Shown: one piece after another, positions 31,938-54,603 of the stretch
How positions within the stretch are numbered: position 1 is the first letter of the stretch
How the letters are laid out: the number at the start of each line of letters is the position of its first letter
From: an uncultured virus (IMG/VR IMGVR_UViG_3300008113_010842)
Taxonomy: Duplodnaviria > Heunggongvirae > Uroviricota > Caudoviricetes
Virus record (IMG/VR): IMGVR_UViG_3300008113_010842
Length of the DNA: 64,000 bases
Reading direction: 5' to 3' (one strand)
Made by a program: the position numbers and the translations under genes
The notes under the pieces: generated by a model
The model's database searches: none
Told to the model about the DNA's origin: nothing
The model's input: the letters and a program-made list of their open reading frames with translations, nothing else

Positions 31938-31945
31938 ATTAAAAC

Positions 31946-31992: not shown

Positions 31993-32136
31993 ATGGCTAC
32001 AGAACAACCAAAAAAGAAAGTCTACTTAGCGGTAAGAAGGAAAAATCCAAATGTTGAGATTGATCCATTTTCTGGATATTTGACTGATAAGCAGTATTTA
32101 GATAAAAAAACTGGTAGATACTTAATAATAAAATAG
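31993..32136 (+). CDS. Small basic hypothetical protein (47 aa, absent from ORF track)
   Basis: ATG after A-rich leader; MATEQPKKKVYLAVRRKNPNVEIDPFSGYLTDKQYLDKKTGRYLIIK*. Confidence 0.55.
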   Translation: MATEQPKKKVYLAVRRKNPNVEIDPFSGYLTDKQYLDKKTGRYLIIK

Positions 32137-32179
32137 ATTTAATTTGTGTTACACAAATATAAAAATAAAATAAAAAAAC

Positions 32180-35839: not shown

Positions 35840-35880
35840 TTGCCGTGTACCAAACCGAAAGCTTAATCAGCAAATCTTAA

Positions 35881-35910
35881 AAAAGAGGACTTATTAGTCC
35901 TCTTTTTTTT
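35881..35910. terminator. Bidirectional terminator
   Basis: AAAAGAGGACT-TATT-AGTCCTCTTTT between convergent genes. Confidence 0.85.
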
Positions 35911-38064: not shown

Positions 38065-38112
38065 ATAACTATATATAATCAAAATAGGTATCCAATTTTA
38101 ATATATAGTAAT

Positions 38113-39117: not shown

Positions 39118-39120
39118 CCA

Positions 39121-39456
39121 ATGAAAATAGTTAAAACATATGAGAATTTTATGGACTTTGATCCGGATTTTGCTATGGCAAAAATTAAACATTTCTATAC
39201 AGAATATGATGTTAAAAACATGGTTGATGATGAAATTGAAAACTGGGTCGAAGAAGAACAAATTGTAGATAATTACGAAGGTAAAGTAGATTGGTATTAT
39301 GATAACGCTTCTGGTGAAGCTGAAGAGGTTGTGATTGACCAGATAATAGACTGGTATGAGAAAGAGTTTAAAAAAGAACTAAGTGAGGAACAAAGAGACC
39401 AATTAACACAAAGAATTGTAAAAGAATATCCTGGAATAGATCCAAACAACTATTAA
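39121..39456 (+). CDS. Acidic hypothetical protein with MKIVKTYENF leader
   Basis: 111 aa, 3 nt after the previous gene. Confidence 0.7.
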   Translation: MKIVKTYENFMDFDPDFAMAKIKHFYTEYDVKNMVDDEIENWVEEEQIVDNYEGKVDWYYDNASGEAEEVVIDQIIDWYEKEFKKELSEEQRDQLTQRIVKEYPGIDPNNY

Positions 39457-39471
39457 TTTTTCTTATATAAT
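39444..39471 (+). promoter_or_regulatory. AAAC-N18-TATAAT promoter-like motif
   Basis: Same spacing recurs upstream of several non-structural genes. Confidence 0.55.
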
Positions 39472-39489
39472 AAAGAAAAATTAAATTCT

Positions 39490-39957
39490 ATGAAACAACC
39501 TTCAAAAGAGGATTTATTGAAAAAATGGTCGTCTATTTTAGGACCAATGGGTATAACAAGTTCTCAATTAGATAATCTATTACAATTAGCTGAAAATCAA
39601 TCTAATCATATATTAGAAGAAAATACTAAAGCATCTGAATTTCCAACTTTATTACCAATGGCTATGAAAGTGGCGGCTCAAACAATTGGTCAAAATTTAG
39701 TTAGTGTTCAACCAATGTCTCATTCCGGAATGTCTCAAGAAGAAATTGATAGAATTAATGCTGAGATTAAGAAAGAAAACCGTGATAGTAAAATTGACGC
39801 CATAGTTGAAGGTAAAGATTATAAAGAATTAAAACCAGAACAACACCCTGATTGGAAATCAGGTCCAGTTGGTAATCTATTTTATTTAGACTACAAATAT
39901 GGTCATAAAAAGACAAGAAGAGCTGGTAAAAAACATAAAAAGAAATCAAATGACTAA
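39490..39957 (+). CDS. Truncated major-capsid-protein (gp23-like) N-terminal fragment with an inserted RDSKIDAI segment
   Basis: KEDLLKKWSSIL, LAENQ, VAAQTIGQNLVSVQPMS...GPVGNLFYLDYKYG parallel T4 gp23 N-terminal motifs; only 155 aa. Confidence 0.65.
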   Translation: MKQPSKEDLLKKWSSILGPMGITSSQLDNLLQLAENQSNHILEENTKASEFPTLLPMAMKVAAQTIGQNLVSVQPMSHSGMSQEEIDRINAEIKKENRDSKIDAIVEGKDYKELKPEQHPDWKSGPVGNLFYLDYKYGHKKTRRAGKKHKKKSND

Positions 39958-40063
39958 ATATGTATCACCTGGTGTTTATGTTAAAGAGGTAGATATTTCT
40001 ACATATTATCCACCTAAGAAATGGGGAAGAATGAAGAAAATTTCTAAAATTTTTACTAAGTAA
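39950..40063 (+). CDS. 37-aa mini-protein: tail-sheath-like N-terminal arm plus RMKKISKIF tail (absent from ORF track)
   Basis: MTKYVSPGVYVKEVDISTYYPPKKWGRMKKISKIFTK*; overlaps the stop of the previous gene. Confidence 0.65.
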   Translation: MTKYVSPGVYVKEVDISTYYPPKKWGRMKKISKIFTK

Positions 40064-40087
40064 ATCTATTAGGGTTATATATACCCT

Positions 40088-40423
40088 ATGTTGTTCAATA
40101 TTTATTTAGTATGTTCTGAAATAAACGGTCAAAAATTACATAAAATAGGATACACAAGAAGACCTATTGAAAAACGAATAAAAGAGTTTAAGACTGGAAA
40201 TGCTTCTGATATCTATTTAGTAGATTCTTTTCAATCAGAGTGGGGAACTAAAATTGAATCTCAACTACATAGAATTTATAAATCAAAAAAAATTGGTGGT
40301 GAATGGTTTGATTTATCACAAGAAGAAATAGATAAGTTTAAAGGTAATTGTGAAAGAATACATAATAATTTAGAATTAATATCTAAACATAATAGTTATT
40401 ATCAAGAAAGAGGTGATTTCTAA
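40088..40423 (+). CDS. GIY-YIG / T5orf172-like nuclease domain protein
   Basis: IYLV...HKIGYT...RIKEFKTGN...IESQLH...GEWF. Confidence 0.85.
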   Translation: MLFNIYLVCSEINGQKLHKIGYTRRPIEKRIKEFKTGNASDIYLVDSFQSEWGTKIESQLHRIYKSKKIGGEWFDLSQEEIDKFKGNCERIHNNLELISKHNSYYQERGDF

Positions 40424-40467
40424 ACAATAATTGATTTTAATATATAAATAAAAAATAATATCAAAAG

Positions 40468-40740
40468 ATGGCTTCACTTAAAGAAATGTCAATAAAAGAG
40501 TATATTTCAAAAATTGACTTCAAAAATGATGATTGGAAATTATCTAAAATCAAAGAAGATATGCGTAGATTCTTAGGAGAAGAGCCTGGAATTGATGTGA
40601 TTTATAAAAAAGATGTATTAATAAATGAAGCCACGATGAAGGCTGAGGAATTTGTTGATGTTGATAGAATACAAATTGTATTTTTTGATACCGATGATAG
40701 GTTTAAAAAGATAGAATTTATTATTAATGATAAAATTTAA
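40468..40740 (+). CDS. Hypothetical protein
   Basis: 90-aa ORF behind TAATATATA at 40438-40446. Confidence 0.65.
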   Translation: MASLKEMSIKEYISKIDFKNDDWKLSKIKEDMRRFLGEEPGIDVIYKKDVLINEATMKAEEFVDVDRIQIVFFDTDDRFKKIEFIINDKI

Positions 40741-40746
40741 AAATTT

Positions 40747-40965
40747 ATGAAGTTTGATAATTACTATTTAGATTTAGAAAAAGTAAATTCCATTCAAGAT
40801 AAAGAAGAAAAAGAACAAATTCATCGTTATTATATGGAAATGATGCATTCTTTTTGTGATGGATCTAGTAGAACCTCAATTGGAATGTCTCTTTTCAATA
40901 CCTTAAACCAATCAGGATACTTAAAAGAGGTAAGGTCAGAAAAAATTGATAAGTTACTATCATGA
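40747..40965 (+). CDS. Small hypothetical protein ending in RSEKIDKLLS
   Basis: 72 aa; ATGA overlap with the next gene. Confidence 0.65.
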   Translation: MKFDNYYLDLEKVNSIQDKEEKEQIHRYYMEMMHSFCDGSSRTSIGMSLFNTLNQSGYLKEVRSEKIDKLLS

Positions 40966-41264
40966 CAATTGATGTATTAGATTATCTTGGAAAACATGAC
41001 GAAGGTATAATTGTCTCTATAACTATTGGTCTTGATGGTGAATATTATGATTCTACTTTTTTTTATAGAGAAACCTTACTTGCAATAAGTGTAGATGAAT
41101 TACTTGAGCAAAAAATTGGTTGTAACATTGAAGATTGGGATAGATATTCTGAATTAATGTTAGCTGTTGTAGAAAAAGTTGTTCCATATGAAGAAATGAT
41201 CGGTCGTGTTGATGAGTTTGACCCATCAAAGTATGACTTATATAAAGATGACCAAAACACCTAA
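40962..41264 (+). CDS. Acidic hypothetical protein
   Basis: 100-aa ORF in operon-like arrangement. Confidence 0.6.
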   Translation: MTIDVLDYLGKHDEGIIVSITIGLDGEYYDSTFFYRETLLAISVDELLEQKIGCNIEDWDRYSELMLAVVEKVVPYEEMIGRVDEFDPSKYDLYKDDQNT

Positions 41265-41310
41265 ACTATTTTTTAATTTTTTGATATAATTATCAAAATA
41301 AATTATATTA

Positions 41311-43008
41311 ATGATTATTGATGAAATCGGAATCAGAGGTTATAAATCATTTGGAAATAATGAACAAATCTTAAAAATATCGACCGATAAAGGTCAGTTA
41401 ATATTACTTGTGGGTAATAATGGAAATGGCAAATCTTCTCTTTTAGAATCCTTTGAGTATACACTTTATGGTAAAGTAAAATCTGGAAAAACAAAAAAAT
41501 GGCATAAATTGTCAACTTTACCGAATAGAATTAATGGTGAATTGCTAAATAGAATTAAATTTCAATCTCAGGGAACAGAAGTTGAGATAAAGCGTGGAAT
41601 TACGCCTAATGTACTTGAGTTGATTGAAAACGGCGTTTTAAATGAAAGAGCCGGTAAATCAAATATTGATGAAAAAATAGAAAAATATGTTGGAATGGAT
41701 ATAGAAACATTCAAATCATTTATTTCTATGTCAATCAATGACTTCAAAAATTTTATTTCACTTACAAACGAAGAAAAACAACTTTTATTAGATAAGCTAT
41801 TCAATTTAGAAGTTATAAATATTCTTAATAATATACTAAAAGATATAAATAAGAATAATAAACTCAGAATGGCGTCTGTAGATTCTGAGATAAGAACTTT
41901 AGATGAATCTATAGATTCAATAAAAAAATCTATTGAAAAGGCAATTGAAAAAGAAAAAGAAAATATTCAATTGGAAATAGATGAGTTGACATTGCAAATG
42001 AATTCAAAAAAAGAAGAATATAAAACTCTCAAAGAAAAAGTTGAAAAAATAAAAGAAAAAGAAAATGAATTATTGGAAGAATTGGATATTGAAAAACGTC
42101 AATATATCAACACTCAAAATGACATCAAAAACGTACAGAAAGAAATTAACCTTTATGATTCAGGAAAATGTCCTACTTGTAGAACAGATTTTAACTCAGA
42201 TCATTTTATTTCTTTGCGCACTACTTTAGTTGAAAAGAAAGAAGGTTATGAAAAAATATTTTCAGAAATAGAAGAAAACATTAAATCAATAAAAGAAAAA
42301 CAAACTAAGTTAAAAAATCTTTCTGAAAAAATTACAACTTCATTTAACGACTTAAATTATCTACTTAGAAATTATAAGTCAAAAATAGATGAATTATCTA
42401 AAAAGAAACAAAGAGAGAGTGGTCAACAATCTATCAATATACAAGAGTTTCAAAATACAATAGAAGAATTGACAGAAAAGAAAAATAATAGTCATGAAAG
42501 CTTTACTATTTGTAAAGAAAAAGAATTGTATTACAAAGAATTAAATCGAATTCTTAGTGAGGATGGAGTAAAAAAATCAATAATTTCTGGTATTATCAAA
42601 CCAATAAATCACTTTATCAATGAAAATATAAAAAAAATGCAAGTTCCATTTGATGTTAAGCTTGATGAAACTTTCACCGCTGAAATTAGAAGTTTAGGTT
42701 CTGTGGTTGAACATGATACGCTATCAACAGGTGAGACTAAACGAATTAATATTGCAATACTTATAGCTTATCTAAAATTAATAAGAACAAAAAAACACAT
42801 TAATATACTTTTTTTAGATGAAGTTTTTTCTTCAATTGACATAGAAGGAATTGATTCGATTTTATTACTTTTGAAATCATTTGCAAATGATTATAATATA
42901 AATATATTTGTTGTTCATCATGCTATATTATCACAAGAGATGTTCGACAGAATAATTAAAATAAATAAAGAAGTATTTTCTTCTATTGAGGAGATTGATT
43001 TTGAATAG
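41311..43008 (+). CDS. SbcC/Rad50/T4 gp46-like recombination ATPase
   Basis: Walker A GNNGNGKSS, zinc hook CPTC, signature LSTGE, Walker B LFLDE, H-loop VVHH. Confidence 0.92.
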   Translation: MIIDEIGIRGYKSFGNNEQILKISTDKGQLILLVGNNGNGKSSLLESFEYTLYGKVKSGKTKKWHKLSTLPNRINGELLNRIKFQSQGTEVEIKRGITPNVLELIENGVLNERAGKSNIDEKIEKYVGMDIETFKSFISMSINDFKNFISLTNEEKQLLLDKLFNLEVINILNNILKDINKNNKLRMASVDSEIRTLDESIDSIKKSIEKAIEKEKENIQLEIDELTLQMNSKKEEYKTLKEKVEKIKEKENELLEELDIEKRQYINTQNDIKNVQKEINLYDSGKCPTCRTDFNSDHFISLRTTLVEKKEGYEKIFSEIEENIKSIKEKQTKLKNLSEKITTSFNDLNYLLRNYKSKIDELSKKKQRESGQQSINIQEFQNTIEELTEKKNNSHESFTICKEKELYYKELNRILSEDGVKKSIISGIIKPINHFINENIKKMQVPFDVKLDETFTAEIRSLGSVVEHDTLSTGETKRINIAILIAYLKLIRTKKHINILFLDEVFSSIDIEGIDSILLLLKSFANDYNINIFVVHHAILSQEMFDRIIKINKEVFSSIEEIDFE

Positions 43009-43600
43009 AAAATTTATTGATATAGTACCTTTTTATCCTGACTTTTTACAAAGTGAGAATTATAGTATTTATAAACAAAAACTTAATTCAATTGATAATA
43101 TATCGGAATTTGCCTTAAAATACATAAATCATATTTCATTAGAAAAAGACTATTTAATATTATTTAATAAAAATATAGAAAAAGTTATGATGTCAAATCA
43201 TGAGTCAGAAACTATTTCTAATCAAAAATTTTTAAATAATGCAAATGGTGATATTTTAATTTTTGGATTAGGTATAGGTTTGATAATTTTTCCTTTACTT
43301 AATGATGATAGTATCAAATCAATAACTATTGTTGAGATTGATTCTGGATTAATTGATTTAGTAGAACCTATCGTAAAAAAATATGATATTAAAAATAAAT
43401 TGTCTGTAATAAATTGCGATGCGTTTGATTATTATAAAATATGTAAATCTAAGTATGATACAATATATTTTGATATCTGGGCTATAATTGATAACTTTGC
43501 TTTTAGTGAAATGAAATTATTAAAAAATAATTATAGACCTTTTTTAAAAGAAAATGGTTGGATAGATAGTTGGCGTTCTGAAGAAATATCAAATTATTAA
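42986..43600 (+). CDS. Class I SAM-dependent methyltransferase (spermidine-synthase-like)
   Basis: ILIFGLGIG, ITIVEID, DAFDY, YDTIYFDIW; start may be TTG at 43001. Confidence 0.8.
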   Translation: MRRLILNRKFIDIVPFYPDFLQSENYSIYKQKLNSIDNISEFALKYINHISLEKDYLILFNKNIEKVMMSNHESETISNQKFLNNANGDILIFGLGIGLIIFPLLNDDSIKSITIVEIDSGLIDLVEPIVKKYDIKNKLSVINCDAFDYYKICKSKYDTIYFDIWAIIDNFAFSEMKLLKNNYRPFLKENGWIDSWRSEEISNY

Positions 43601-43630
43601 TTTAATAAATAAAAAAAACAAAATAAAACT

Positions 43631-43825
43631 ATGTTAATTGTAAAAATCGAAGGTAAAGAAACTATCGAAAGAGCTGTAAAAAAACTCAAAAGAAAATATG
43701 ATAATGCTAAAATTGGTAAAACTCTTAGAGATAGAAAAGAATTTACAAAAAAATCTGTCAAAAGAAGAGACGAACTAAAAAAGGCAATTTATAAGCAAAA
43801 ATTAAGAGACGGTGAAAGAGACTAA
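43631..43825 (+). CDS. rpsU: Ribosomal protein bS21 (phage-encoded, Bacteroidota-like)
   Basis: MLIVKIEGKETIERAVKKLKRK...LRDRKEFTKKSVKRR. Confidence 0.9.
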   Translation: MLIVKIEGKETIERAVKKLKRKYDNAKIGKTLRDRKEFTKKSVKRRDELKKAIYKQKLRDGERD

Positions 43826-44532
43826 TGAATAAAGATAAAAATTATTATAAAATTTTAGGAGTTTCTCACGATGATGATGAAAAAACTATAAAAAAAGCTT
43901 ATTATAAGTTGTCTTATACATTTCACCCTGATAAAGGAGGTGATCCTAACGTATTTTCGGAAATCACTGAGGCATATGATATACTATATAATATAGAAAG
44001 TAGAAAAGAATATGACCTTAAAAGTAAATTCGGAAGTAATTACAACGAATATTTTGAACTATTTGATATAAATGTTGATTTTTCTTATGATGAAGGTAAA
44101 GAAAAACTAGAAAAATTCAAAAAGTATGAAGTCTATAATATACAAATTAATATAGATGATAGTTTTGATGGTTCTTTAGAATATGAAAGATGGGTCAAAT
44201 GTAAATCTTGTGATGGTACTGGTAAAGATTTTTCATCAAAAATTATAATAAGAGATACCGAAGGTAATATAGTAAAGACATTTGATGCGGATGATGGTTG
44301 TGATTTTTGTGAAGGAAGTGGAAAAGATTATATAGGTAATTCTTGCTCTTTTTGCCAAGGTGCTGGTAAAGTAGGAATAAATCCTTGTAAAAAATGCAAT
44401 GGTGAAAAAAGAATTTTAGGTAAGCAAAAATTATCTAAAATAAAACTTACTGGTGACGAAACTAAAATAGATTCAATGGGTCATTTTTCAAAAGATGGTG
44501 TAGTTGGTTATTTACTAATTGTGAAAAAATAA
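43825..44532 (+). CDS. dnaJ: DnaJ-like co-chaperone (J domain plus four CxxCxGxG-type repeats, shortened C-terminus)
   Basis: NYYKILGV, HPDKGG, CKSCDGTG, CDFCEGSG, CSFCQGAG, CKKCNGEK. Confidence 0.85.
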   Translation: MNKDKNYYKILGVSHDDDEKTIKKAYYKLSYTFHPDKGGDPNVFSEITEAYDILYNIESRKEYDLKSKFGSNYNEYFELFDINVDFSYDEGKEKLEKFKKYEVYNIQINIDDSFDGSLEYERWVKCKSCDGTGKDFSSKIIIRDTEGNIVKTFDADDGCDFCEGSGKDYIGNSCSFCQGAGKVGINPCKKCNGEKRILGKQKLSKIKLTGDETKIDSMGHFSKDGVVGYLLIVKK

Positions 44533-44534
44533 TT

Positions 44535-47500
44535 TTAACTACCTGCACTAAAATTCTGAGCTGGTTGTTCGGTAATACCTTGGAAACCAAATCCTGTGTT
44601 ATATGAGAATCCTATACCCTGTCCTACGCCACTGAAATTCTCATATTGAGATACTATGTTAAAACTATCTAAACCAATTGATAAGTTATCTAAAAACTCA
44701 AAGTTAGCATCACTATAATCTATGTAAGGTGCAATTCCTTGATAAGGAATTTGAGTAGCTTTATTAATGTTGGTTTCTTCCCAATATTTAAAGAATGGTA
44801 TTGAGTCTACCTCTATGAATTTTAAATTATCAATTATAAATTGTGAATATGATGCACCATAGGTTCCACTTCCTCTAAAATGCATACCTAAATTTCTTTT
44901 ATTATAGAAATACTCAATTTTTCTAGTCTTTGGTGTTGTTAAATGATTCACATTTTGATAGACAGGTAAATAGTCAGCTGGATAAACAACTGATATAAGA
45001 CTATTTGTTAATAAAAAAGGAACTTTAGATGTATAGTTATTTATATTATTAAAATGAATTAAAGGTTCAATAATCGGTTGACCTTTATATCCACTAAGTT
45101 TACCAGTGTCCCAGAATGTTTCATCTTGTATGTCTTCATATTCAGTTTCATTCACTGAATAAGTAACTAAATCAAATTCAACAATAGTATATCTATTTCT
45201 TTCTACTTCTGATATGTCTCTTCCATTTATATCAATAGTTGGTGTTGTAATGTCTAGTACACCGCCTTCAGAAATTGCCTCAACTAATAATTCTTTACCT
45301 TCAACAATTTCATTTTCATCACCTATTGTTCTTGAGAATGTTAAAGATAATGGTCCTGCTTTTGAGTAAGTCCAGCCTTGATCAATAAAAAGTTTAGCAT
45401 TTGAGCCTGTTGGTCCAAAGAAATCATTAAAATCTGATGATTCTCCTATAAAATCATTAAAAATTTTATATTTCGTACCAAGTTTATATCTTCTTATTGT
45501 ATTTGAAAATGAATCTCTAAATGATGACTCACTTGACAATATTTCCCAAGTTGGATATCCGAAGTGATTATTTAAAGAGTAACTCTTTTTAGATATTGGA
45601 TTTATCAATGTTTGTGGACGTCCAATATTGACAGCGGTTGTTTCATCATAATTGAAGTCAATCCAAGAGTTATAAATAAATAAATTTTGACTATCCTTAG
45701 ATTGTGCTGTGGTTAGTTTTGATGTATTAAGTGCTGAAAAGTTAAAGTTTTGTACTAAACTACTTGATATTTTTGTACTTACTATACCGGTTTCGCCTGA
45801 AGAATTTTGACCCCAGTCCAAATCTGTAGTAAACGAATAGTCATCTTCTACAGATACAACTTTAGTTTCACCATCATATTCTGGATTTATAGTTTTATCA
45901 GTTTTATCAATATTAATTATATCTCCTATAATTAAACCGTGTGGTGTAGAAAAAGTCAATCCTACTTTACCTTCCCTCCAAACCGTATCCGAAAAAGAAA
46001 AAGTTGCAGATAATTGTGATTTGAAATGCCCGCCTGTAAATTTACCATCAATCCATTGAGTATCAAAAAACTCAGTTAGATATGGATAACCTTTAACAAG
46101 CCCATTATTCCAAACACCTTTGAATACTCCGTTGAGAAATGCACCATTTAACCAAACATTTTTTGTAACTTTTATTCTGTGAGTATCTGAGTCTTTTTCT
46201 ATTCTTCTTATTGGAAATGTTGTGTCAGTTTCTACAACAATGTAACCTCTTCTTCCATCAGTGGATGCTTCTATCAAATCTATAATAGTAAAGGTATTTT
46301 TTAGAAGTTTTCTATTTTCGTTGATATCAACAGCCACTATATTTCCAATAGATACCTTATCACCAACATTGAAGAATGATACTGATTGTGTTGGGCCAAC
46401 TAAACGTATTCTCCATCTTACGTCTGAAAAAATTCTGAATGTTAAATCAGCATCATCAAAATATTTATAATTTTGATCATCTCTATAACCATTATTCCAA
46501 ACACCGTTTTCCCATATTCCGGCATTAAATGTACCATTACCTATTTTAGAATAAATTTTATTTACTTGTAATGATTGGGTCGCATTAATAGTATTTCCAT
46601 TACCAACAGTTGCTGTATAAGTAGCGCCCGATATGTTAGCAGAATACGCAGGTAAACTCATAGTAAAAACTTGATTGTTTATTGAATTATATCCTCCTTC
46701 TATAAATAGGTCATAAATAGCAAGTAAGACTTGTGCTCCAGTTATTGATTGAGATCTTTTTGGGACAAAAGTTATGTATTTACCTCCTCTTAATCCATAG
46801 AAATCACCATTAATTGGATCAGTAACGCCGGTATTTGAAACACTTTGTGTAACAGTTGCAATTAACTTTGTTGTGATATTATTTTCCCAACTTTGAAAGC
46901 TTGATGTGGATGTTGTTATAGGTGGTGTCAAATCGGATAAATAAATTTTTACACCATCAGATGCCTGTCCTGTTAATTTTTCATAAATAAAATGCAAATT
47001 AAAAAATTGATAAGGTATAAATCTAGTTATGAAACTATTATCTCTAAAAGCCGAATCTGCTTGTTTTTGTCCATTTTCACCACCTATTGCATATTTAGTT
47101 GAGACAGATGGTCCAGCATCATGCCAAACAAAACCTGTTGAATTTGAATTGTTATCTATATATTTCCATCCAAGTCCATGTGTATTTGGTGTAAATGAAT
47201 ATGAACCATTATCAGATAACATATAACCATTAACTTGCCAATCTAACTCATACATTTGAAAATCAATTATACCTAAACCTGAACTGGGTCTAAAATTTCT
47301 ATTTGCGCTATATTTAACATAATAGTTTGTTCTTGTTGTAGTAGGTGTTTTTGAAAAATGATAAATATAATCAGCATCAACTGCTACTGAAGGTGTTCCA
47401 AAACCGAAACTAGAATATTCTATTCCTATTCTATCATTGTGAGTTGTTGGTGAAATTGAAAAAGACATACCTGCTGTCAGTTTTACAGAATTATTATGAC

Positions 47501-47693
47501 TTAGATATCTTATTCTTGTTTTAATTAGTTGTGTTTTTCCCGCAGTGAAAGTTTTAAACTGATTACCTTTATAATACAAAACTGGTAGTTTACTAGCATT
47601 AACACCGGAACTAACACTCATTGCGGTACCGCCGGTCGCTCCAGTTATAAAATTTAATTGCCAATCAGTTGCTATAGAAGATTCCCAACCCAT
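44535..47693 (-). CDS. Large putative virion protein with G-x-W/F repeats
   Basis: 1052 aa; GTFNAGIWENGVWNNG, WLNGAFLNGVFKGVWNNG. Confidence 0.6.
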   Translation of the reverse strand: MGWESSIATDWQLNFITGATGGTAMSVSSGVNASKLPVLYYKGNQFKTFTAGKTQLIKTRIRYLSHNNSVKLTAGMSFSISPTTHNDRIGIEYSSFGFGTPSVAVDADYIYHFSKTPTTTRTNYYVKYSANRNFRPSSGLGIIDFQMYELDWQVNGYMLSDNGSYSFTPNTHGLGWKYIDNNSNSTGFVWHDAGPSVSTKYAIGGENGQKQADSAFRDNSFITRFIPYQFFNLHFIYEKLTGQASDGVKIYLSDLTPPITTSTSSFQSWENNITTKLIATVTQSVSNTGVTDPINGDFYGLRGGKYITFVPKRSQSITGAQVLLAIYDLFIEGGYNSINNQVFTMSLPAYSANISGATYTATVGNGNTINATQSLQVNKIYSKIGNGTFNAGIWENGVWNNGYRDDQNYKYFDDADLTFRIFSDVRWRIRLVGPTQSVSFFNVGDKVSIGNIVAVDINENRKLLKNTFTIIDLIEASTDGRRGYIVVETDTTFPIRRIEKDSDTHRIKVTKNVWLNGAFLNGVFKGVWNNGLVKGYPYLTEFFDTQWIDGKFTGGHFKSQLSATFSFSDTVWREGKVGLTFSTPHGLIIGDIINIDKTDKTINPEYDGETKVVSVEDDYSFTTDLDWGQNSSGETGIVSTKISSSLVQNFNFSALNTSKLTTAQSKDSQNLFIYNSWIDFNYDETTAVNIGRPQTLINPISKKSYSLNNHFGYPTWEILSSESSFRDSFSNTIRRYKLGTKYKIFNDFIGESSDFNDFFGPTGSNAKLFIDQGWTYSKAGPLSLTFSRTIGDENEIVEGKELLVEAISEGGVLDITTPTIDINGRDISEVERNRYTIVEFDLVTYSVNETEYEDIQDETFWDTGKLSGYKGQPIIEPLIHFNNINNYTSKVPFLLTNSLISVVYPADYLPVYQNVNHLTTPKTRKIEYFYNKRNLGMHFRGSGTYGASYSQFIIDNLKFIEVDSIPFFKYWEETNINKATQIPYQGIAPYIDYSDANFEFLDNLSIGLDSFNIVSQYENFSGVGQGIGFSYNTGFGFQGITEQPAQNFSAGS

Positions 47694-47708
47694 TTCTTAT
47701 ATATTTTT

Positions 47709-50700
47709 TTATCTCATCCCTGGTAGTACATAAGTAGTGATGGTTGATGCACTCGCACTTGCTATTATATTATTATTTATTGTATTGTCAAATAAATTCC
47801 AGATATGAGATGATGTATTACCTGAATATTGAAACCCTCTATCTAATATATCTTTTACAAACGGATCTTCTACGATTCCATTATATTGAAAACTTGAACC
47901 ATACCAGTTACCATTTCTCCACAATCCATTATCCCAGAAAACATTAAAAGCGTTCATATATTCTGATACACCATTTTTGAATATCATGCCATAAGCTGTT
48001 CCTATAACAAATTTACCATCATTCCATACAGAGATATTGAAATCTCCATTTTTGAATTCACCATTTTGCCAATAACAACTATCATCATTTAAATTAAATG
48101 ATTTTTGTGCATCACCCGGTCTTTTTACAAATGGATTAAACGAACCACTATTGAAATATCCTCTTTCAAAAGTTCCATCTAACCAAACACAATTTACCAT
48201 TGTTGCTCTTTGGTGACTAAATGTACCGGATAACCATAGAGCGTTTTCAATATAAGACATTGGTTTTTTAATGAACAATTTTTTTAAACTTGTCGCTTCT
48301 GTAAATATTTTTTCTGCTACTATAAATTTATCTTTTATATTTGTAACAAAGCCATTTCTCCAGAGACCATAAAAAGATTGACTGAAAGAATCAGTAAAAT
48401 CAGAAGCATTTGAGTTTGAAGCTCCACCAACTGATGAAATAGTTGCACTTCCCTCAAATTTACCAAATGTAAATAAACCATCGTTCCAGAAACGACCTTT
48501 GAATGTGCCACCATTGAATTCACCTGAATACCAACATGAGTTTGTAGCTAACTGAGCACTACCAAATTCACCACCATTAAAAACACCATCTTCCCAGGTA
48601 TATTCTATTTTATTATTTGACAATGTATCGTAAGTTTGTGAGAAAGTCCAACCATTTCCACTTATGAATTTACCACCATTGAATGTGCCAGTTTTCCACT
48701 TACCATTTGTTACAAATTCACCTCCATTAAAAATACCATTATGCCATAGTGCTTTGTAATCTACTATGTAGTCTAAATCACATCCGAATACCCCATTTTG
48801 AAATATTCCATCATACCAATCTATAGATGAGCCGGATAATCCATAATAACTTACATCTTCTGCAAATAAATTAGCATTCTCAACTGTCGCAAAACTTATA
48901 GAACCTCCTATTATATTTGTAACGTTATAATTTAGAGTATCATCACCTATAAGTGCGTCTTTTATTTTACCATTATAGAAGTTTGAATTTACTATTTTTG
49001 CATATTCAATAAAACCATTTTCCCAATCAGACTTAAGAATTTCTCCACTGCTAAATGTTCCATTTTGCCAAGAATTTCTATTATTGAAATTTACATCAGA
49101 TGTCATTCCATCTTTATAATAACTTCGTATATTTTCCGACTCGTAGTATGGATTGTTTATAGTTGATGTTTTGTTAAATGATTTAGAATCATAAAATAAT
49201 CCTTTTGCAAATAAACCATCAACCCATCTACCTTGTCTGAATATGCCATCAGAAAAAGTTTGACCAATCCATATTGAATTTGAAACAATACCATTATTAT
49301 AACTATCAGAGCCTTTTATAAAGTATGAGTTCATGTATAAAGCCTTAGATAATATATTAGATGTATTGCTGAATAGACTTTCATATATAAGTAACTTTTT
49401 TGCATTTAAGTTATTTGTCAAATCTCTATCTGTTGTATCAAATTCTTGATTTTCTATTAAAGATTCTGTTATATAAGACCTTTTGAATACACCACTTTTA
49501 ATTTTAGATTTTTTAAACTTAGCTTTGTAGATGTAACCATATCTATTTTGAGCATCTGTTGTGTAAAATAAACCACCACCAGTGAGTCCTGAAATGACAC
49601 TTGTTGAGCCCGATATGAGTTCTTCTAAGTAAATTGTGTTTCCTAAATTTTGAGTTATTTTATATGTGTCAGGTAGCCTAACTATTGAACCAGTAACTGA
49701 TGTTACTATTATAAATGAGTTTGAGTTGCCACTCTGTAGTGTTAAAATATCACCTGCTTCATAACCTAAACCTACATTACTTAAAGTTGCAGAGCTTACT
49801 GAACCACCAGTTGCTGTAATCTCAAATATGGCACCTGTTCCAGAGCCACCTATTCCAGTCACACCAACTGAACTACTATATGATGAACCAGCTGTACTTA
49901 TTGTAAATGAAAAAATTTGACCTCTTGTATCATAATCTACTGAATTAAGATATACTACATTTCCTGGTGTTAGACAATTTTCCCCAGATTCTCTATAATT
50001 TAAATCATATGTAGTCGTTGCAACTATAGTAGATGCTGTAGATAGATTAATATTGTAATATTTACCAATAGCACTATTCTCTGTTATATTTACATCATTA
50101 TTATAGTTTATATGATATCCTGCGTTCCAGTCAGAGTTTTCAAATAGACCACTTTCAAAATCAGAGTCTAAAATATAAGCTTTTGTTACATCAATTATAT
50201 TACCTAATACATTTGACATTGTTAATGAATAAGTAAATGACTCGTTAGTGCTTCTATTGAAGTCCAAATCACCAACTGATACTAAATTTTTATCATATTT
50301 TGAAACTACGATATCTAAAGAGTAGCCTTTTTTATTATTTGAGTCTACTATATATGTGTCTCTACTGAATGAACCGGTAATTACAGTATTATATTTGTAC
50401 TCATTATCGGCTGGTGTTGATAAATAAGCAGCCACTTCTATACCTCTTTTATAGAAAGAGTAAGTTGCTGTATTAGGAAAACTTGTTCCTAAGTTAAAAG
50501 CATCTACATAATCAGTATAACTTGATAATCTAAATCTGTTATCAAATATCGTAATTGGGTTATTTAAAGTAGTGTTGTAATTTAATCCTTTTACATAAAA
50601 TCTATCTCTTATTTTGAGTCTTTCATAATCTTTTTTTTCTATATAAAATTTGTAAACTTTATGAGATGCGTCTTGGATAGAACTAACTTCCGCATAATTA

Positions 50701-52193
50701 AACTCATCATAATCTAAAATTTTTATCACATCATCACTTATATAATTTGAGTTTTTAAATACAGAATTTTTGAAATGAGAATTTATAGATTTTATATTCT
50801 CAAAATATGTATTATTAGATCTTCCATTTTTTATTTCAGAATTAGATACATTGCCACCATTAAAACTACAATTTTCAAAATATGCTTTAATGATATCATT
50901 GTTAAAGTCTAGTCCAGCTGAAGTGTAATAATTCTCTATCACTGAGTAAGTTGTTGTGCTTCCTATACTTGAATTAATTATTGTTCCATTTACGATTGTG
51001 GAACTAATTATATCAGAGTCTATTATAAAATTATAGCCTCTTCCATTATTATTTGGACCAGTTGATTTTTGATTAGGTATTCCATATTCATCAAACTCAG
51101 TGATAAAACTTTCAGGAAGTGTATAAACAGAATCTATTTTTCCCTTTTCCCATATAGTATTTAATACGGTTCCGTTTCTAAAAGTAGAAGTATCTCCTTC
51201 CCAAGTCACCTTTTTATCACTTCTTCCAAAAAGACCTACGTTCCAAGTACCTTTAAAGTTACCTCCTCTAAAGTTTCCTTTTGTGATAAATGGTCTTTCA
51301 TATAATACATCTGTAACCCAAGTTGAGTAAGTTCCAGCAGATGCATCTGGTTCTGGTGCCATATCAAATTTAAATATTAATCCCTCTTCAAACTCTACTA
51401 TACCAGGTCCTATTGAAAAGGTGAAACTCGCATTATTTATCTTTACTCTACTTGCAGTAGAACCCGGTGCAAGTGCCAAAGAGAACGAACCCGTTATGAA
51501 TTCAGATGTTATGTTTGTCCAACTAAAAGTGCCATTTTTTACATAGAAACCAGGACTACCTGTAAGTCCTCCATTTTCACCCCAACCAGCAAATGCTGAA
51601 TAATTTTGGTCAGCATAAATTACATTATTCTTATAATAACTAAATTTGTTATCAAAATTACCACCTTTTGTTGTTATGAATCTGTTGGCATGTTTAAAAT
51701 CTTGCTCATTTCTTATATAGAAAATGTTTATAAAGTCATCAGCTGATTGACTTTCGTAAGGAATTGTACCATTATATGGTATATCTAAAACAATTTTACA
51801 TTTATCTACAAACAAAACTTTATAACCATCTCTACCTTTTTTATACTTATCTGATTTTATAAGTAAGTCACTATCATAATTACCATTTATTATGAATACT
51901 CTATCACCAACTGATAAATTGTGATTGACCTCAGTATAAAAAAGTGTATAAGTCACACCGGCTGCTTGTGTATTTGAAAGACTACCTTGGATTATATAAG
52001 GTTCTACCCAGTTTAGTAATCTTGGACTAAAAGGTTTGTTAGCATCAGAAACTAAGCCTGCTAAGGGATCTACTCCTACTAAATTTATCTGGTCACCTGC
52101 TTCAGCCTGATCTTCAGGTGAAAGAAGCATTGGTTTAAGAGATATTATTTTTTTTATCTTAGGTGATATTAAAGAAGTAGAAAATGTACCCAT
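47709..52193 (-). CDS. Giant putative virion protein with extensive G-x-W/F pentapeptide repeats
   Basis: 1494 aa; WHNGIFNGGEFVTNGKWKTGTFNGGKF and similar; TAATATATA at 52213-52221. Confidence 0.6.
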   Translation of the reverse strand: MGTFSTSLISPKIKKIISLKPMLLSPEDQAEAGDQINLVGVDPLAGLVSDANKPFSPRLLNWVEPYIIQGSLSNTQAAGVTYTLFYTEVNHNLSVGDRVFIINGNYDSDLLIKSDKYKKGRDGYKVLFVDKCKIVLDIPYNGTIPYESQSADDFINIFYIRNEQDFKHANRFITTKGGNFDNKFSYYKNNVIYADQNYSAFAGWGENGGLTGSPGFYVKNGTFSWTNITSEFITGSFSLALAPGSTASRVKINNASFTFSIGPGIVEFEEGLIFKFDMAPEPDASAGTYSTWVTDVLYERPFITKGNFRGGNFKGTWNVGLFGRSDKKVTWEGDTSTFRNGTVLNTIWEKGKIDSVYTLPESFITEFDEYGIPNQKSTGPNNNGRGYNFIIDSDIISSTIVNGTIINSSIGSTTTYSVIENYYTSAGLDFNNDIIKAYFENCSFNGGNVSNSEIKNGRSNNTYFENIKSINSHFKNSVFKNSNYISDDVIKILDYDEFNYAEVSSIQDASHKVYKFYIEKKDYERLKIRDRFYVKGLNYNTTLNNPITIFDNRFRLSSYTDYVDAFNLGTSFPNTATYSFYKRGIEVAAYLSTPADNEYKYNTVITGSFSRDTYIVDSNNKKGYSLDIVVSKYDKNLVSVGDLDFNRSTNESFTYSLTMSNVLGNIIDVTKAYILDSDFESGLFENSDWNAGYHINYNNDVNITENSAIGKYYNINLSTASTIVATTTYDLNYRESGENCLTPGNVVYLNSVDYDTRGQIFSFTISTAGSSYSSSVGVTGIGGSGTGAIFEITATGGSVSSATLSNVGLGYEAGDILTLQSGNSNSFIIVTSVTGSIVRLPDTYKITQNLGNTIYLEELISGSTSVISGLTGGGLFYTTDAQNRYGYIYKAKFKKSKIKSGVFKRSYITESLIENQEFDTTDRDLTNNLNAKKLLIYESLFSNTSNILSKALYMNSYFIKGSDSYNNGIVSNSIWIGQTFSDGIFRQGRWVDGLFAKGLFYDSKSFNKTSTINNPYYESENIRSYYKDGMTSDVNFNNRNSWQNGTFSSGEILKSDWENGFIEYAKIVNSNFYNGKIKDALIGDDTLNYNVTNIIGGSISFATVENANLFAEDVSYYGLSGSSIDWYDGIFQNGVFGCDLDYIVDYKALWHNGIFNGGEFVTNGKWKTGTFNGGKFISGNGWTFSQTYDTLSNNKIEYTWEDGVFNGGEFGSAQLATNSCWYSGEFNGGTFKGRFWNDGLFTFGKFEGSATISSVGGASNSNASDFTDSFSQSFYGLWRNGFVTNIKDKFIVAEKIFTEATSLKKLFIKKPMSYIENALWLSGTFSHQRATMVNCVWLDGTFERGYFNSGSFNPFVKRPGDAQKSFNLNDDSCYWQNGEFKNGDFNISVWNDGKFVIGTAYGMIFKNGVSEYMNAFNVFWDNGLWRNGNWYGSSFQYNGIVEDPFVKDILDRGFQYSGNTSSHIWNLFDNTINNNIIASASASTITTYVLPGMR

Positions 52194-52261
52194 TTAATTT
52201 GAAACTTTTGATTATATATTAATTTTATTCAAGTTTCTATTATATTAAAACTTAAATTACT

Positions 52262-52269
52262 TATCTTTG
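52262..52269 (+). promoter_or_regulatory. Bacteroidota-type -7 element TATCTTTG
   Basis: 9 nt upstream of the sirtuin ATG; -33 element not obvious. Confidence 0.55.
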
Positions 52270-52278
52270 TAAAATAAT

Positions 52279-53001
52279 ATGGAAAAAATGAAAATTTTAA
52301 TTTTTACTGGTGCTGGAGTTTCAGCGGAAAGTGGAGTTGCGACTTTTAGAACTGGTGATGATGGATTATGGTATAATCACAGAGTAGAGGATGTTGCTAC
52401 ATTTGATGGTTGGCGTAGAGATAAAGAAAAGGTCTTAAATTTCTACAATTTGCGTCGTGCTCAATTAAAAGAAGTAGAACCTAATTTAGCACACCAAATA
52501 ATTGCTGATTTAGAAAAAGACTTTGATGTTACAGTTGTGACACAAAATGTTGATAATCTTCACGAAAGAGCTGGTTCAACTAAAGTAGTTCACTTACACG
52601 GTGAATTAACAAAAGTCAGATCTACTTTAGATCCTACTTTAATTTACGATTGGGTAGAAGATTGTAATGTTGGTGATAAATGTGAGAAAGGTTCACAATT
52701 GAGACCTCATATTGTTTGGTTTGGTGAAAACTTAAATCCTAAAATGATTGAAAGAGCTGAAGAAGCCGCTTATGAATGTGATGTTTGTGTTATTGTAGGA
52801 ACTTCGATGCAAGTTGCACCGGCTAATCAAATTCCATTTTTAACAAAACCAAATACACTTATCTATGTAGTTGATCCATCTGATATGGATTTTCATATAG
52901 ATAAACAAAGAAGACCGTTTTTGACACACATTCAAGAAGTTGCATCTACCGGTATGGAAAAGATTATGAGTGATTTAAAAAGTATTAACAATCAAAATTA
53001 A
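52279..53001 (+). CDS. cobB: Sir2/CobB NAD-dependent deacylase
   Basis: TGAGVSAESGVATFR, TQNVDNLHERAG, HLHGEL, LRPHIVWFGE, VGTSMQVAPA. Confidence 0.95.
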   Translation: MEKMKILIFTGAGVSAESGVATFRTGDDGLWYNHRVEDVATFDGWRRDKEKVLNFYNLRRAQLKEVEPNLAHQIIADLEKDFDVTVVTQNVDNLHERAGSTKVVHLHGELTKVRSTLDPTLIYDWVEDCNVGDKCEKGSQLRPHIVWFGENLNPKMIERAEEAAYECDVCVIVGTSMQVAPANQIPFLTKPNTLIYVVDPSDMDFHIDKQRRPFLTHIQEVASTGMEKIMSDLKSINNQN

Positions 53002-53267
53002 ATAACACAGAAACAAACATTTTTGACAGTGAATACTGGAAACTTTTAGAAAGACAAGGTATTAATAGATATCTTAAATTAGATAATAACTTAGTTATTA
53101 TTACTGATATCTTAAAAAAGAAAAGAAAAAAAGGTGGTAAAGTAAACCAAGTTTATTATGTCACTGAGTGTGGAATAACAAAACATGCATCATTCTTTTC
53201 TAAAATAGACAAAAGAGATATTTTACAAATTAAAAGGGATTTAAAATTACAAAAACTAGGACTATGA
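52989..53267 (+). CDS. Open frame of about 92 codons with no ATG/GTG/TTG start, ending KRDLKLQKLGL (absent from ORF track)
   Basis: Stop-free from 52989 to TGA 53265-53267, fills the gap, ATGA overlap with the next gene, carries the shared C-terminal motif. Confidence 0.55.
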   Translation, partial: QSKLNNTETNIFDSEYWKLLERQGINRYLKLDNNLVIITDILKKKRKKGGKVNQVYYVTECGITKHASFFSKIDKRDILQIKRDLKLQKLGL

Positions 53268-53470
53268 AAAATAAATACAAAAGTATCTACAGCACATATA
53301 ATGACTATAATATTGATTATAAAGACTATGGTAAATATGTTAATATAACAGACTATATCAATGAGTATAATGTTGATTGGGTAGAATATAAACCCGAAAC
53401 AAAAGAAGAAAAACTAGCTCGTGAAAAGGCGGAAAAAAGAAATTCTAAAATCGACCAAATCTTAGGATAA
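53264..53470 (+). CDS. Small hypothetical protein ending KRNSKIDQILG
   Basis: 68 aa; coupled overlaps on both sides. Confidence 0.65.
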   Translation: MKNKYKSIYSTYNDYNIDYKDYGKYVNITDYINEYNVDWVEYKPETKEEKLAREKAEKRNSKIDQILG

Positions 53471-54006
53471 TGGAATGGATAATCGCCTTTAGTATAGTGA
53501 TTACAATTTTTTTGACTATATTATCAATACCTTCTTGGGTTGAAGTTTATAAATTAGGTTGGAAAGAATATATTGAAAGTTGGAAGTCTATTTCTTTACT
53601 TAAAAAAGGTCTAAATTTGTCTTATAAAATAGAAAAAACACAAACTTTAAATTATAATTATTATAATGGTAAAACTAAATCAGTTACCTCCAAAGTTACA
53701 GATTATTATTACCCAATATTTAAAAATGGTGATGTTATAATAATTAAAAGTTCCGAGAGTCCTTTTTCAACGATATATGTCATTTTTAACCGTAAAATGA
53801 ATGGTAAATGGGTTGAAAATACAACTGAACTTAAGACGAGTCAGTGTCCCTGGCAACAATTATTTATTGATATCGTTAAAAATAAATTGATTAAGTTAAG
53901 AGAATCTTCTCTTAAATTAGAAAATGTGAATAAACTAGAAGAAGTTATTTATTCTGATTTATTGGAAAGAGATAGAGATAATAAGATTAATTTATTATTA
54001 AATTAG
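53470..54006 (+). CDS. Membrane-anchored hypothetical protein ending RDNKINLLLN
   Basis: N-terminal hydrophobic helix; 178 aa. Confidence 0.65.
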   Translation: MEWIIAFSIVITIFLTILSIPSWVEVYKLGWKEYIESWKSISLLKKGLNLSYKIEKTQTLNYNYYNGKTKSVTSKVTDYYYPIFKNGDVIIIKSSESPFSTIYVIFNRKMNGKWVENTTELKTSQCPWQQLFIDIVKNKLIKLRESSLKLENVNKLEEVIYSDLLERDRDNKINLLLN

Positions 54007-54362
54007 TCTTCTTTCTTAAAAGAAGATGGTGTTATTAAATTTTGTTGTTTAAAAACCTTTAATAAAATGAAAACTAATGTACCTCCTGGTAAGATAGATA
54101 ATGATGTTAAACCAAGCATTTTTAAAATATCAACTGATTGTTGTTTTATAAATCTTATTTCTTCTTCTGATAAATCCCTTTTTTTACCTTCAACATCTAA
54201 TAACTCACCTTTTGATGCTTTACTTAATAAGTCGTAAGCCTGTCTCGTTTCATCACCTTCATTTTTTAGTTTTCTTTTGAATTCTTGGAAATTGTTTTTC
54301 AAATCCTCTATAAGTTGAGATGGATCAATCAGGTAATCTTTTATAGATTTTATGTATTTCAT
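54003..54362 (-). CDS. Hypothetical protein with hydrophobic LPGG hairpin (possibly LETM1-like) and MKYIKS leader
   Basis: ILKMLGLTSLSILPGGTLVFILLKVF..ITPSSF; TAATATATA 6 nt upstream. Confidence 0.55.
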   Translation of the reverse strand: MKYIKSIKDYLIDPSQLIEDLKNNFQEFKRKLKNEGDETRQAYDLLSKASKGELLDVEGKKRDLSEEEIRFIKQQSVDILKMLGLTSLSILPGGTLVFILLKVFKQQNLITPSSFKKED

Positions 54363-54414
54363 TATAATTATATATTATTTTACAAACAATCAAAAGTTTA
54401 TTTTTTATAATTAT

Positions 54415-54603
54415 ATGAATAATAAAGAAAATTTAGATATTTTTGGACAATTACTTAACGGAAAACAAGTTATAATTGGAAAACCGCGACAGGTAGGAAA
54501 AACCTATGCTACACAATTATTTAGAGATTGGAAAGTCACTTTTAATAAACACTCTCGTGCTCAGGATAGAAAAGAAAGTATAAAAAAACTTTTTAATATA
54601 TAA
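54415..54603 (+). CDS. 62-aa mini-protein with a terminase-type Walker A (KPRQVGKT) plus RKESIKKLF tail
   Basis: ATG at 54415 directly behind AAAC-N18-TATAAT (54384-54411); VIIGKPRQVGKTY. Confidence 0.6.
   Translation: MNNKENLDIFGQLLNGKQVIIGKPRQVGKTYATQLFRDWKVTFNKHSRAQDRKESIKKLFNI

Follow-up and report, generated by a model that had tools for sequence, protein, structure and literature searches.

Capsid, sheath and terminase fragments joined to a shared helix motif: candidate bait-plus-handle mini-genes in an uncultured phage

The stretch of DNA considered here (64,000 nucleotides, hereafter the window) belongs to the uncultured virus IMGVR_UViG_3300008113_010842 of the Caudoviricetes and contains, all on the + strand, three short open reading frames (ORFs), referred to as ORF A (39490-39957), ORF B (39950-40063) and ORF C (54415-54603). 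A preliminary description had read them as mini-genes made of signature fragments of the capsid, tail-sheath and terminase proteins, each marked with the same short peptide, and all three are indeed present at these coordinates. The comparisons described below indicate that they are real and conserved small genes, each of which joins one conserved block of a core phage protein to an amphipathic helix motif, the tag. The copied blocks appear to be the N-terminal quarter of the capsid protein in ORF A, the N-terminal arm of the sheath in ORF B, and the strand, Walker A loop and helix of the large terminase (TerL) in ORF C. The interpretation that we favor, while giving it slightly less than even chances, is a “bait plus handle” arrangement, in which the fragment would act as the bait and the tag as the handle.

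The window is AT-rich (G+C of 23-37% in 2-kb bins), and its positions 39000-44000 share approximately 73% DNA identity with two complete genomes of uncultured phages, LR745206.1 (634,780 bp) and LR756502.1 (642,428 bp), whose capsid, sheath and terminase genes served as stand-ins for those of the window phage itself. Al-Shayeb et al. 2020 (PMC7162821) place complete genomes of 634, 636, 642 and 735 kb in the Mahaphage clade, with Bacteroidetes as their predicted host. The window phage itself appears to be a huge phage of the Mahaphage type, and the gene content of the relatives is consistent with a Bacteroidota host, since LR745206.1 codes for type-IX-secretion CHU_C-domain proteins, SprB repeats and a TonB-dependent receptor. 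For the shuffle tests, each mini-ORF was scored against 311 large ORFs of a relative, the family-wise version taking, for every shuffle, the best score over all 311.

ORF A codes for a protein of 155 amino acids (aa), and its earlier description as a gp23-like N-terminus is borne out by several comparisons, of which the one with Pfam stays below threshold. It matches the PHROG family phrog_138, “major head protein”, over residues 6-78 (E 3.6e-5), and its residues 52-78 match positions 6-32 of the 376 positions of the Pfam Gp23 profile (PF07068) with an E value of 2.3e-4 and 21.2 bits, below the cut-off of 24.4. Translated searches (tblastn) with ORF A reach the full-length capsid genes of the two relatives at E values of 6.5e-6 and 1.8e-7, and its score against a relative's capsid protein, which ranks first of the 311, was reached by none of 500 shuffles. 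The full-length gp23-type capsid genes (560 and 571 aa) lie approximately 90 kb from the orthologues of ORF A, which are syntenic in both relatives, code for 157 and 165 aa, and are 49% and 45% identical to it.

In the alignment, ORF A is collinear with residues 1-125 of the relatives' capsid proteins. Its residues 1-45 form a delta-domain-like start with a K-W pair, following which a Gly/Ala-rich stretch of approximately 35 residues present in the capsid protein is deleted, and residues 54-75 carry the block LLP.A.K.AAQTIG..V.V.P, which is nearly identical to that of the relative's capsid protein while the remainder of ORF A diverges. Directly after the LLP block there is an insertion of approximately 49 residues, which contains a helix with the tag (RDSKIDAI, residues 98-105; 39781-39804), and residues 125-138 (GP.G.LFYLDYKYG) are the counterpart of capsid SPGPKIDLLYIDFRYD. 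The helix is predicted by AlphaFold2 at residues 83-107 with a predicted local distance difference test (pLDDT) score of 82-93, the whole model averaging 66. When a profile of 33 members of the ORF A family was searched against the PDB, T4 gp23 was the sole match at E<=1; this match (E 0.27) is not significant alone and is collinear with gp23 residues 1-46 and 90-119. The ESM Atlas gave no usable feature match for ORF A (its model has a pLDDT of 0.53, and structural neighbors have template modeling, TM, scores < 0.5), and a complex prediction combining the ORF A family alignment with the clade's capsid alignment scored 0.00, which, having been run without controls, weighs neither way.

The conservation of the three ORFs, which the preliminary description had proposed to check in related phages, is found in all of them in the form of small-protein families of 219, 25 and 13 representatives for ORFs A, B and C, respectively. 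The figure for ORF A refers to cluster representatives at E<=1e-3 among 1.84 billion proteins, 121 of which are retained at E<=1e-10. The best 150 of the 219 are every one 58-236 aa long, which means that none of these 150 is a full-length capsid protein. In the family alignment (n=33), K12, W13, P56, R98 and D134 are invariant and N97, I102, L130, Y132 and Y137 nearly so, such that the residues of the tag are as conserved as the capsid-like ones. Between genomes, ORF A evolves much faster than the capsid protein (45-49% identity vs 74-99% among the listed capsid proteins of the clade). Contigs from RNA libraries that are approximately 94% identical to the window allowed for a comparison between strains, with 12 of 15 and 7 of 11 differences listed; among these listed differences, codons 112-145 show 10 synonymous and 2 non-synonymous changes, and codons 24-43, a poorly conserved spacer, 1 synonymous and 5 non-synonymous. 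At the composition of the window, the probability of a frame staying open by chance is 1.5e-6 for 155 codons, 0.005 for 62 codons and 0.04 for 37 codons. Selection on the mini-genes, as opposed to their being debris, is thus supported by families in which both fragment and tag residues are invariant and by the mostly synonymous codon changes in the C-terminal block of ORF A.

ORF B codes for 37 aa, and its ATG at 39950 lies 8 nt inside the end of ORF A, so that the two are adjacent and overlapping, as had been reported. A motif of the sheath N-terminal arm, KYVSPGVYVKEVDIS, occupies 39956-40000, and the tag (RMKKISKIF, 40028-40054), here in a “K-I-F” flavor, comes after it. The assignment to the sheath arm made in the preliminary description holds by the N-terminal motif and by shuffling, but is not carried by profile comparison: the score of residues 1-22 against the 1295-aa sheath protein of the relative ranks first of 311 and was reached by 1 of 2000 shuffles (1/60 in the family-wise test), with the alignment placed on sheath residues 6-26 (KYKRPGIFIEEFDQS...), and tblastn against the sheath genes gave E values of 0.33 and 0.46, not significant alone. 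In the 25 representatives of the family, the start Met of the 37-aa form is invariant, the segments Y.SPGVYV.E.DIS.Y and R..KI..IF are invariant or nearly so, and the tag columns R44, K47, I48, I51 and F52 of the family alignment are nearly invariant. An orthologue is present in LR756502.1 (E 2.8e-6). A tblastn search of GenBank phages with ORF B returned 3 records only, namely this orthologue and a weak place (E 4) in a 735-kb genome that is filed twice.

ORF C, of 62 aa, combines a TerL-like strand, Walker A loop and helix (GKPRQVGKT, 54478-54504) with the tag (RKESIKKLF, 54568-54594; “K-L-F” flavor). It ends soon after the Walker A helix, being without the Walker B motif, the catalytic Glu and the nuclease domain. 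Residues 1-45, when compared with the Walker A region of the relative's TerL (SRQVGKT), obtain a score that ranks first of 311 and was reached by 5 of 2000 shuffles, and TerL alone among the relative's 311 large ORFs contains the pattern R-Q-x-G-K-[ST]. With respect to the terminase Walker A claimed earlier for this ORF, the motif and the ranking stand, no profile match supports it, and the family-wise shuffle is weak. Across the 13 family representatives (56-62 aa; 74-100% identity), the segments LDIFGQLL, GK.RQ.GKTY and RK.SIKKLFN show hardly any change, residues 15-21 and 40-51 are variable, and 9 of the 10 tag columns are invariant across the 13 members. AlphaFold2 places the tag inside a predicted helix spanning residues 31-59 (mean pLDDT 75.8). 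At 308177-308522 of LR745206.1, the orthologue of ORF C perhaps uses a TTG start, the mini-gene overlapping it codes for 67 aa and a 41-aa tagged ORF lies just upstream; the mini-genes at this place seem to form a dense cluster with rapid turnover.

The tag itself can be described as a helix motif, [IL]-R-[DEN]-x-K-[IL]-x-x-[IL]-[LF], starting usually 10-11 residues before the stop. The common peptide had originally been given as R-x-x-K-I-x-x-I/L; the peptides RDSKIDAI, RMKKISKI and RKESIKKL are all present, but the literal pattern fits two of the three, missing RKESIKKL because of the S at position 4. Among six-frame ORFs >=30 aa of LR745206.1, the strict pattern occurs 65 times, and 54 of these instances lie <=18 residues from the C-terminus, a zone that holds 14.9% of positions (binomial 3e-34); in LR756502.1, the same holds for 34 of 47. 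With a broader pattern and a heuristic gene set of LR745206.1, 130 instances were found, 112 of them <=20 residues from the end, which amounts to 112 of 981 genes (~11%), and the same proteins reversed gave 4 instances, none of them terminal. The motif most often starts 10 residues (n=41) or 11 residues (n=25) ahead of the stop, within a range of 9-16, the tag being followed by 0-10 variable residues and sometimes being internal. Tagged genes of LR745206.1 are distributed over the length classes as 11/92 (30-60 aa), 47/201 (60-100 aa), 38/232 (100-150 aa), 15/243 (150-250 aa) and 1/213 (>250 aa). The logo reads K-[SQ]-E-[IL]-R-[DEN]-x-K-[IL]-[NKD]-x-[IL]-[LGIF]-x-stop, and in the helical model, R0, K3, I4, I7 and L8 would come to lie on one face.

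The codons of the tag vary synonymously (AGA 40, AGG 9 and CGN 5; AAA 37 and AAG 14), which indicates a constraint on the peptide and not on the DNA. An element acting at the DNA level, i.e. a promoter for the next gene or a recombination site, was rejected on this ground and for the reason that, in some tagged genes, an ATGA overlap with the following start leaves no space for a promoter. Also rejected was the idea that the K-I-F tag is a copy of the capsid spine-helix TISKQIVAKIF, which with the tag matrix ranks 549 of 188,734 positions, with a score near 0. As for a sliding-clamp peptide, the family-B DNA polymerase of LR745206.1 is split into two pieces approximately 100 kb apart, at 130568-131992 (-) and 232803-234344 (+), the C-terminal one of which ends in ...RRLSVVMDIFGGFK, which we take to resemble a T4-type clamp-binding tail. 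This end (...VVMDIFGGFK) is loosely tag-like, and no gp45-type clamp was detected with PF02916 or PF09116.

The tag is not confined to fragment genes, most of the tagged bodies being unrelated to virion proteins. In a Pfam scan of 62 tagged proteins of the relative, Gp23 was the sole recurring family, with three sub-threshold matches, and 60 of the 62 had no credible Pfam family other than capsid pieces. Within the window, the tag is found on at least six frames besides ORFs A, B and C. Five of these, all on the + strand, lie near the two loci. A 90-aa protein (40468-40740), with TAATATATA 22 nt upstream and orthologues that are 70% and 63% identical, has the variant tag-like C-terminus DDRFKKIEFIINDKI. 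It is followed by a 72-aa protein (40747-40965) ending in the canonical tag EVRSEKIDKLLS (RSEKIDKLLS; position-specific scoring matrix, PSSM, score 18.7), which the relative's orthologue keeps. A 92-codon open frame at 52989-53267, which starts 12 nt inside the end of a Sir2 gene, ends in the tag IKRDLKLQKLGL and has no ATG, GTG or TTG start that would give >=40 aa; it may have an unusual start or be a decaying gene. Canonical tags also end a 68-aa protein at 53264-53470 (EKRNSKIDQILG, RNSKIDQILG; PSSM score 21.7) and a 178-aa protein at 53470-54006 (RDRDNKINLLLN, RDNKINLLLN), the orthologue of which in the relative is found at E 2.6e-26. A 318-aa protein (6981-7937, +) has a tag-like DRRNDRISQIL near its N-terminus (residues ~24-34), and a few proteins of the relatives have internal copies of the tag, with G, D or N as the usual next residue. 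A 111-aa GIY-YIG-like T5orf172/MUG113 gene (40088-40423, +; Pfam E 2.4e-17) comes immediately after ORFs A and B and is kept in each of the three genomes, whereas the small tagged ORFs that fill the slot before it, behind ORF A, differ from one genome to the next.

Further genes of the fragment-plus-tag type, which the preliminary description had suggested looking for, do occur in LR745206.1. They include an 83-aa mini-gene product resembling scaffold repeats (E 1e-13 to a 707-aa protein coded just upstream of the capsid gene), one of 75 aa resembling capsid residues 494-539 (E 2.5e-5; Pfam Gp23 positions 308-356), one of 62 aa, also present as an orthologue in LR756502.1, resembling the capsid spine-helix region (Pfam Gp23 positions 164-194, E 5e-4), and one of 61 aa with a weak match to Pfam Gp23 positions 132-163 (E 6e-3); another is perhaps a piece of the portal protein (2/60 family-wise). 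The basic R-K-x-[KS]-I-x-K-[IL]-F flavor of the tag is the ending shared by all these fragment minis of the relative and by ORFs B and C. Evidence for a fragment was obtained for 4 of 16 “IF” minis vs 0 of 41 “IL” minis (Fisher 0.0046, or 0.019 counting one weak IL match), suggesting that fragment-bodied minis preferentially carry the basic K-I-F flavor. When all small frames of the window were compared with the large ORFs of the relative, a clear BLAST match was obtained for ORF A only.

Regarding expression, both loci had been described as starting right behind an AAAC-N18-TATAAT motif, in place of the TAATATATA motif found before structural genes. The former is present before both loci, but as a class it is not above chance in the window, with 3 matches vs 1.04 expected and 9 of 100 shuffles reaching 3, which is not significant. 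Before ORF A (39444-39471, +) the match is exact, and the TATAAT and AAAC parts are kept in both relatives with a 17-nt spacer; before ORF C (54384-54411, +), a normal leader would not fit between the TATAAT and the ATG, which are 3 nt apart, and the motif is not conserved in the relative, where a tagged mini-gene overlaps the site. The third match precedes an SbcC-like gene at 41311. The TAATATATA motif has 15 matches in the window vs 4.4 expected, a number reached by 0 of 100 shuffles, and all 15 (e.g. 18346, 23456, 38099, 40438 and 54594) lie 5-23 nt upstream of an ORF start, in two distance classes (5-11 nt or 20-23 nt). We regard it as a candidate for a late promoter, the leaders of which would be very short. 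Its position before structural genes is confirmed in LR745206.1, where the genes for scaffold, capsid, TerL and sheath have an exact or closely similar copy in front of them, but in the window it also precedes non-structural genes (38113 and 54622) and the small gene at 40468. In agreement with the separation of the mini-genes from the TAATATATA class proposed earlier, TAATATATA heads 5 of the 71 co-directional units of LR745206.1 that contain a tagged gene vs 102 of the 341 other units (p 2e-5), so that tagged genes mostly fall into an expression class other than that of the head and tail genes. That the mini-genes are made earlier than the late proteins is inferred from the promoter motifs alone, which give no direction in time. 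Three poly(A) RNA-library runs contain short contigs over ORF A (191 and 230 nt, ~94% identical) as well as contigs over 40465-40928 and over the SbcC-like gene.

In the bait-plus-handle arrangement, the fragment would compete for the normal partner of the conserved block that it copies, which could be an adjacent subunit, a chaperone or EF-Tu, or one of the host's sensors for core phage proteins. The face of the tag made up of R, K, I, I and L would dock the bait to a single reader common to all tagged proteins, candidates for which are the phage's own Hsp70/DnaJ, a ClpB-like AAA+ protein and the ClpP proteins; LR745206.1 codes for a full Hsp70, a type-I DnaJ, a 701-aa two-ring ClpB-like AAA+ protein and two ClpP, and LR756502.1 for three ClpP. 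Bait and handle together would make the minis similar to microProteins, i.e. competitive mimics placed in a different expression class from the late virion proteins.

A number of observations weigh against this arrangement or against the fragment assignments on which it builds. ORF B matches no Pfam family at E<=10 and no PHROG family at E<=0.01, and ORF C no Pfam family, including the terminase families, at E<=10 and no PHROG family, which under the refuting condition of the preliminary description speaks against both. The family-wise shuffle test of ORF C is weak (8/60), which makes its link to TerL the weakest of the three, and a Walker A strand-loop-helix cut from its fold is a poor candidate for specific binding. 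The fragment minis are also unstable across genomes, ORFs B and C having been gained or lost: ORF B has no counterpart in LR745206.1, where its slot is filled by another tagged ORF of 84 aa, and ORF C has none in LR756502.1 (tblastn), while its orthologue in LR745206.1 (E 1.9e-6) is without an ATG and is overlapped by another tagged mini-gene. Of the K-I-F-type minis tested, 13 of 20 have no likeness to any large protein at <=4/60 shuffles, which means that a fragment body is not general even in this class. As for expression, the tagged genes at 40468 and 40747 of the window stand behind a TAATATATA motif, and the RNA-library contigs, for which DNA carry-over is possible, include no notable one over ORF C, an absence that is uninformative.

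Among the alternatives, it has been proposed that the minis are immune decoys, which display conserved capsid, sheath and terminase blocks to Avs/STAND, CapRel or Lit-type sensors and thereby titrate or blunt them, the tag serving for turnover or localization. As an explanation in its own right, we regard this as unlikely. The copied blocks are the most conserved parts of their parents, the invariant columns of 42 capsid proteins falling at residues 80-126, 323-379 and 466-546, and ORF A covers the region collinear with T4 gp23 residues 1-46 and 90-119, where the Gol region presumably lies (near residues 90-120). According to a review (PMC3014915), the first quarter of gp23 binds EF-Tu, and its 29-residue Gol region, the most conserved part of the protein, activates Lit. 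In a 2026 preprint (10.64898/2026.01.04.697583), recognition by Avs sensors is reported for the conserved core folds of core phage proteins, among them those of capsid, tail and polymerase. What is recognized is a fold, however, and minis of 37-62 aa cannot reproduce one. It has to be added that a Gol-like peptide is expected to activate, and not block, a Lit-type system, that no sensor is known for the uncultured host, and that the tag is common to approximately 100 non-fragment proteins.

To a second proposal we attach a similarly low probability. Here, the minis would act against other phages infecting the same cell or would regulate assembly of the phage itself, with the arm fragments (capsid N-arm, sheath N-arm and scaffold repeats) capping subunit-joining sites in a dominant-negative manner. 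In T4-type virions, subunits are joined through the capsid N-arm, the sheath N-arm and the scaffold repeats, and ORF A keeps its LLP block near-identical to that of the capsid protein while the rest diverges; furthermore, tagged units stand mostly outside the TAATATATA class. However, if they were not removed or held separate, the minis would also poison assembly of the phage that makes them, and the TerL Walker A piece is not an interface element. Both the decoy and the anti-competitor roles can be viewed as sub-cases of bait plus handle.

It is improbable, in our estimation, that the tag is a cargo-loading or capsid-targeting peptide, by which tagged small proteins would be packed in the very large head and injected, with ORF A entering via its delta-domain-like start. 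Such a role would account for one short terminal peptide on many unrelated small proteins and for the presence of scaffold and capsid pieces among the fragment minis. ORF A also retains the K-W pair that is invariant at the start of the delta domain, and in many of its family I-x-E stands where the capsid protein has an invariant I-N-E, the T4 head protease being one that cuts after L/I-x-E. On the other hand, pieces of sheath and TerL are out of place inside the head, the helical motif is unlike the consensus of the encapsulin or T4 signals, and the depletion of tagged genes in units headed by TAATATATA, the motif that precedes head and tail genes, argues weakly in the same direction. We consider it quite improbable that the tag is a handle for the phage's chaperone or protease (Hsp70/DnaJ, ClpB-like protein or ClpP), with the tagged proteins acting as adaptors for targeted degradation or unfolding; the fragment minis would then seize host proteins that recognize core blocks, e.g. 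immune sensors, for destruction, in the manner of a phage proteolysis-targeting chimera (“PROTAC”). Recombination debris, i.e. fragments copied beside a homing-endonuclease-like gene and open by chance, with the shared end being a by-product of a repeated DNA element, is very improbable and for ORF A largely refuted: the GIY-YIG-like gene does stand directly downstream of ORFs A/B in three genomes with a differing slot before it, and fragment minis are gained and lost between relatives, but the families are large and conserved with invariant residues in fragment and tag, the C-terminal block of ORF A has 10 synonymous vs 2 non-synonymous changes among the differences listed, codons vary synonymously inside the motif, and a 155-codon frame has a probability of 1.5e-6 of being open by chance.

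In other respects, the window is collinear with approximately 272 to 312 kb of LR745206.1, save for a ~19-kb insertion at ~18.8-38.1 kb (window ~18800-38100), in which collagen-repeat and laminin-G proteins are coded beside a pair of glycosyltransferase-like genes and giant ORFs (2037 and 1219 aa). A gene at 43825-44532 (+) codes for a short DnaJ-like protein consisting of a J domain and a zinc-finger region, a second J-domain protein beside the relative's DnaJ, and one at 62521-62958 (+) matches the C-terminal domain of ribosomal L7/L12 (E 2e-6). LR745206.1 also codes for a PrkA/DUF444/SpoVR trio, many aminoacyl-tRNA synthetases and an EF-G-like protein.

When compared with the parent families, ORF A shares with the gp23-type capsid proteins (PF07068; T4 gp23, PDB 6uzc/7vs5) a collinear N-terminal quarter that includes the delta domain and the Gol region, the likeness to T4 being weak; it differs in having 155 aa vs 560, no A- or P-domain, approximately 35 residues deleted and a tag helix of approximately 49 residues inserted, and, while homologous at the N-terminus, it fails the curated cut-off over the HK97-type body. 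It is collinear with gp23 residues 90-119, where the T4 Gol peptide, which binds domains II-III of EF-Tu and activates Lit, presumably lies, and the tag helix is inserted directly after this region. ORF B shares with contractile tail sheaths (PF04984) the N-arm motif of the clade's sheath, the rest of the fold being missing from its 37 aa, for which no profile match was obtained, and ORF C shares with large terminases (PF03237) the R-Q-x-G-K-[ST] Walker A after a hydrophobic strand, its 62 aa being without the remaining active site.

As for whole arrangements, the microProteins of plants and animals go back to a single interaction domain of a larger protein and, small as they are, act as dominant-negative competitors. 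The present mini-genes resemble them in being small stand-alone genes that copy a piece of a larger protein of the same genome, a likeness seen at the level of sequence, and differ from them in being phage genes, in copying pieces of 15-80 residues and in carrying a tag shared across the proteome. The tag, in turn, recalls short terminal address peptides such as the cargo-loading peptides of encapsulins, the capsid-targeting sequence of T4 internal proteins, and Clp degrons or adaptor tails, in that one short near-terminal peptide is common to many unrelated proteins. Unlike those signals, it is helical, with a conserved R-D-x-K and an I/I/L face, and its sequence is unlike any of them. With regard to Clp degrons and adaptor tails, which have their signal at the extreme terminus for a Clp ATPase or adaptor, the start of the motif lies 9-16 residues ahead of the stop, with variable ends, and a ClpB-like protein and two ClpP are present in the relative. 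A full-text literature search listed no published description of such a tag or of fragment mini-genes.

If the tag is a common address label, finding its reader would give a shared step to approximately a hundred unannotated proteins per genome. If the fragment minis are competitive mimics, they would represent a new class of phage counter-measure or of assembly control, and would point to the surfaces by which host sensors, chaperones or rival phages recognize the capsid, sheath and terminase. The size of the families, with 219 representatives for ORF A, makes the question open to study with synthetic genes, even though the phages themselves are uncultured.

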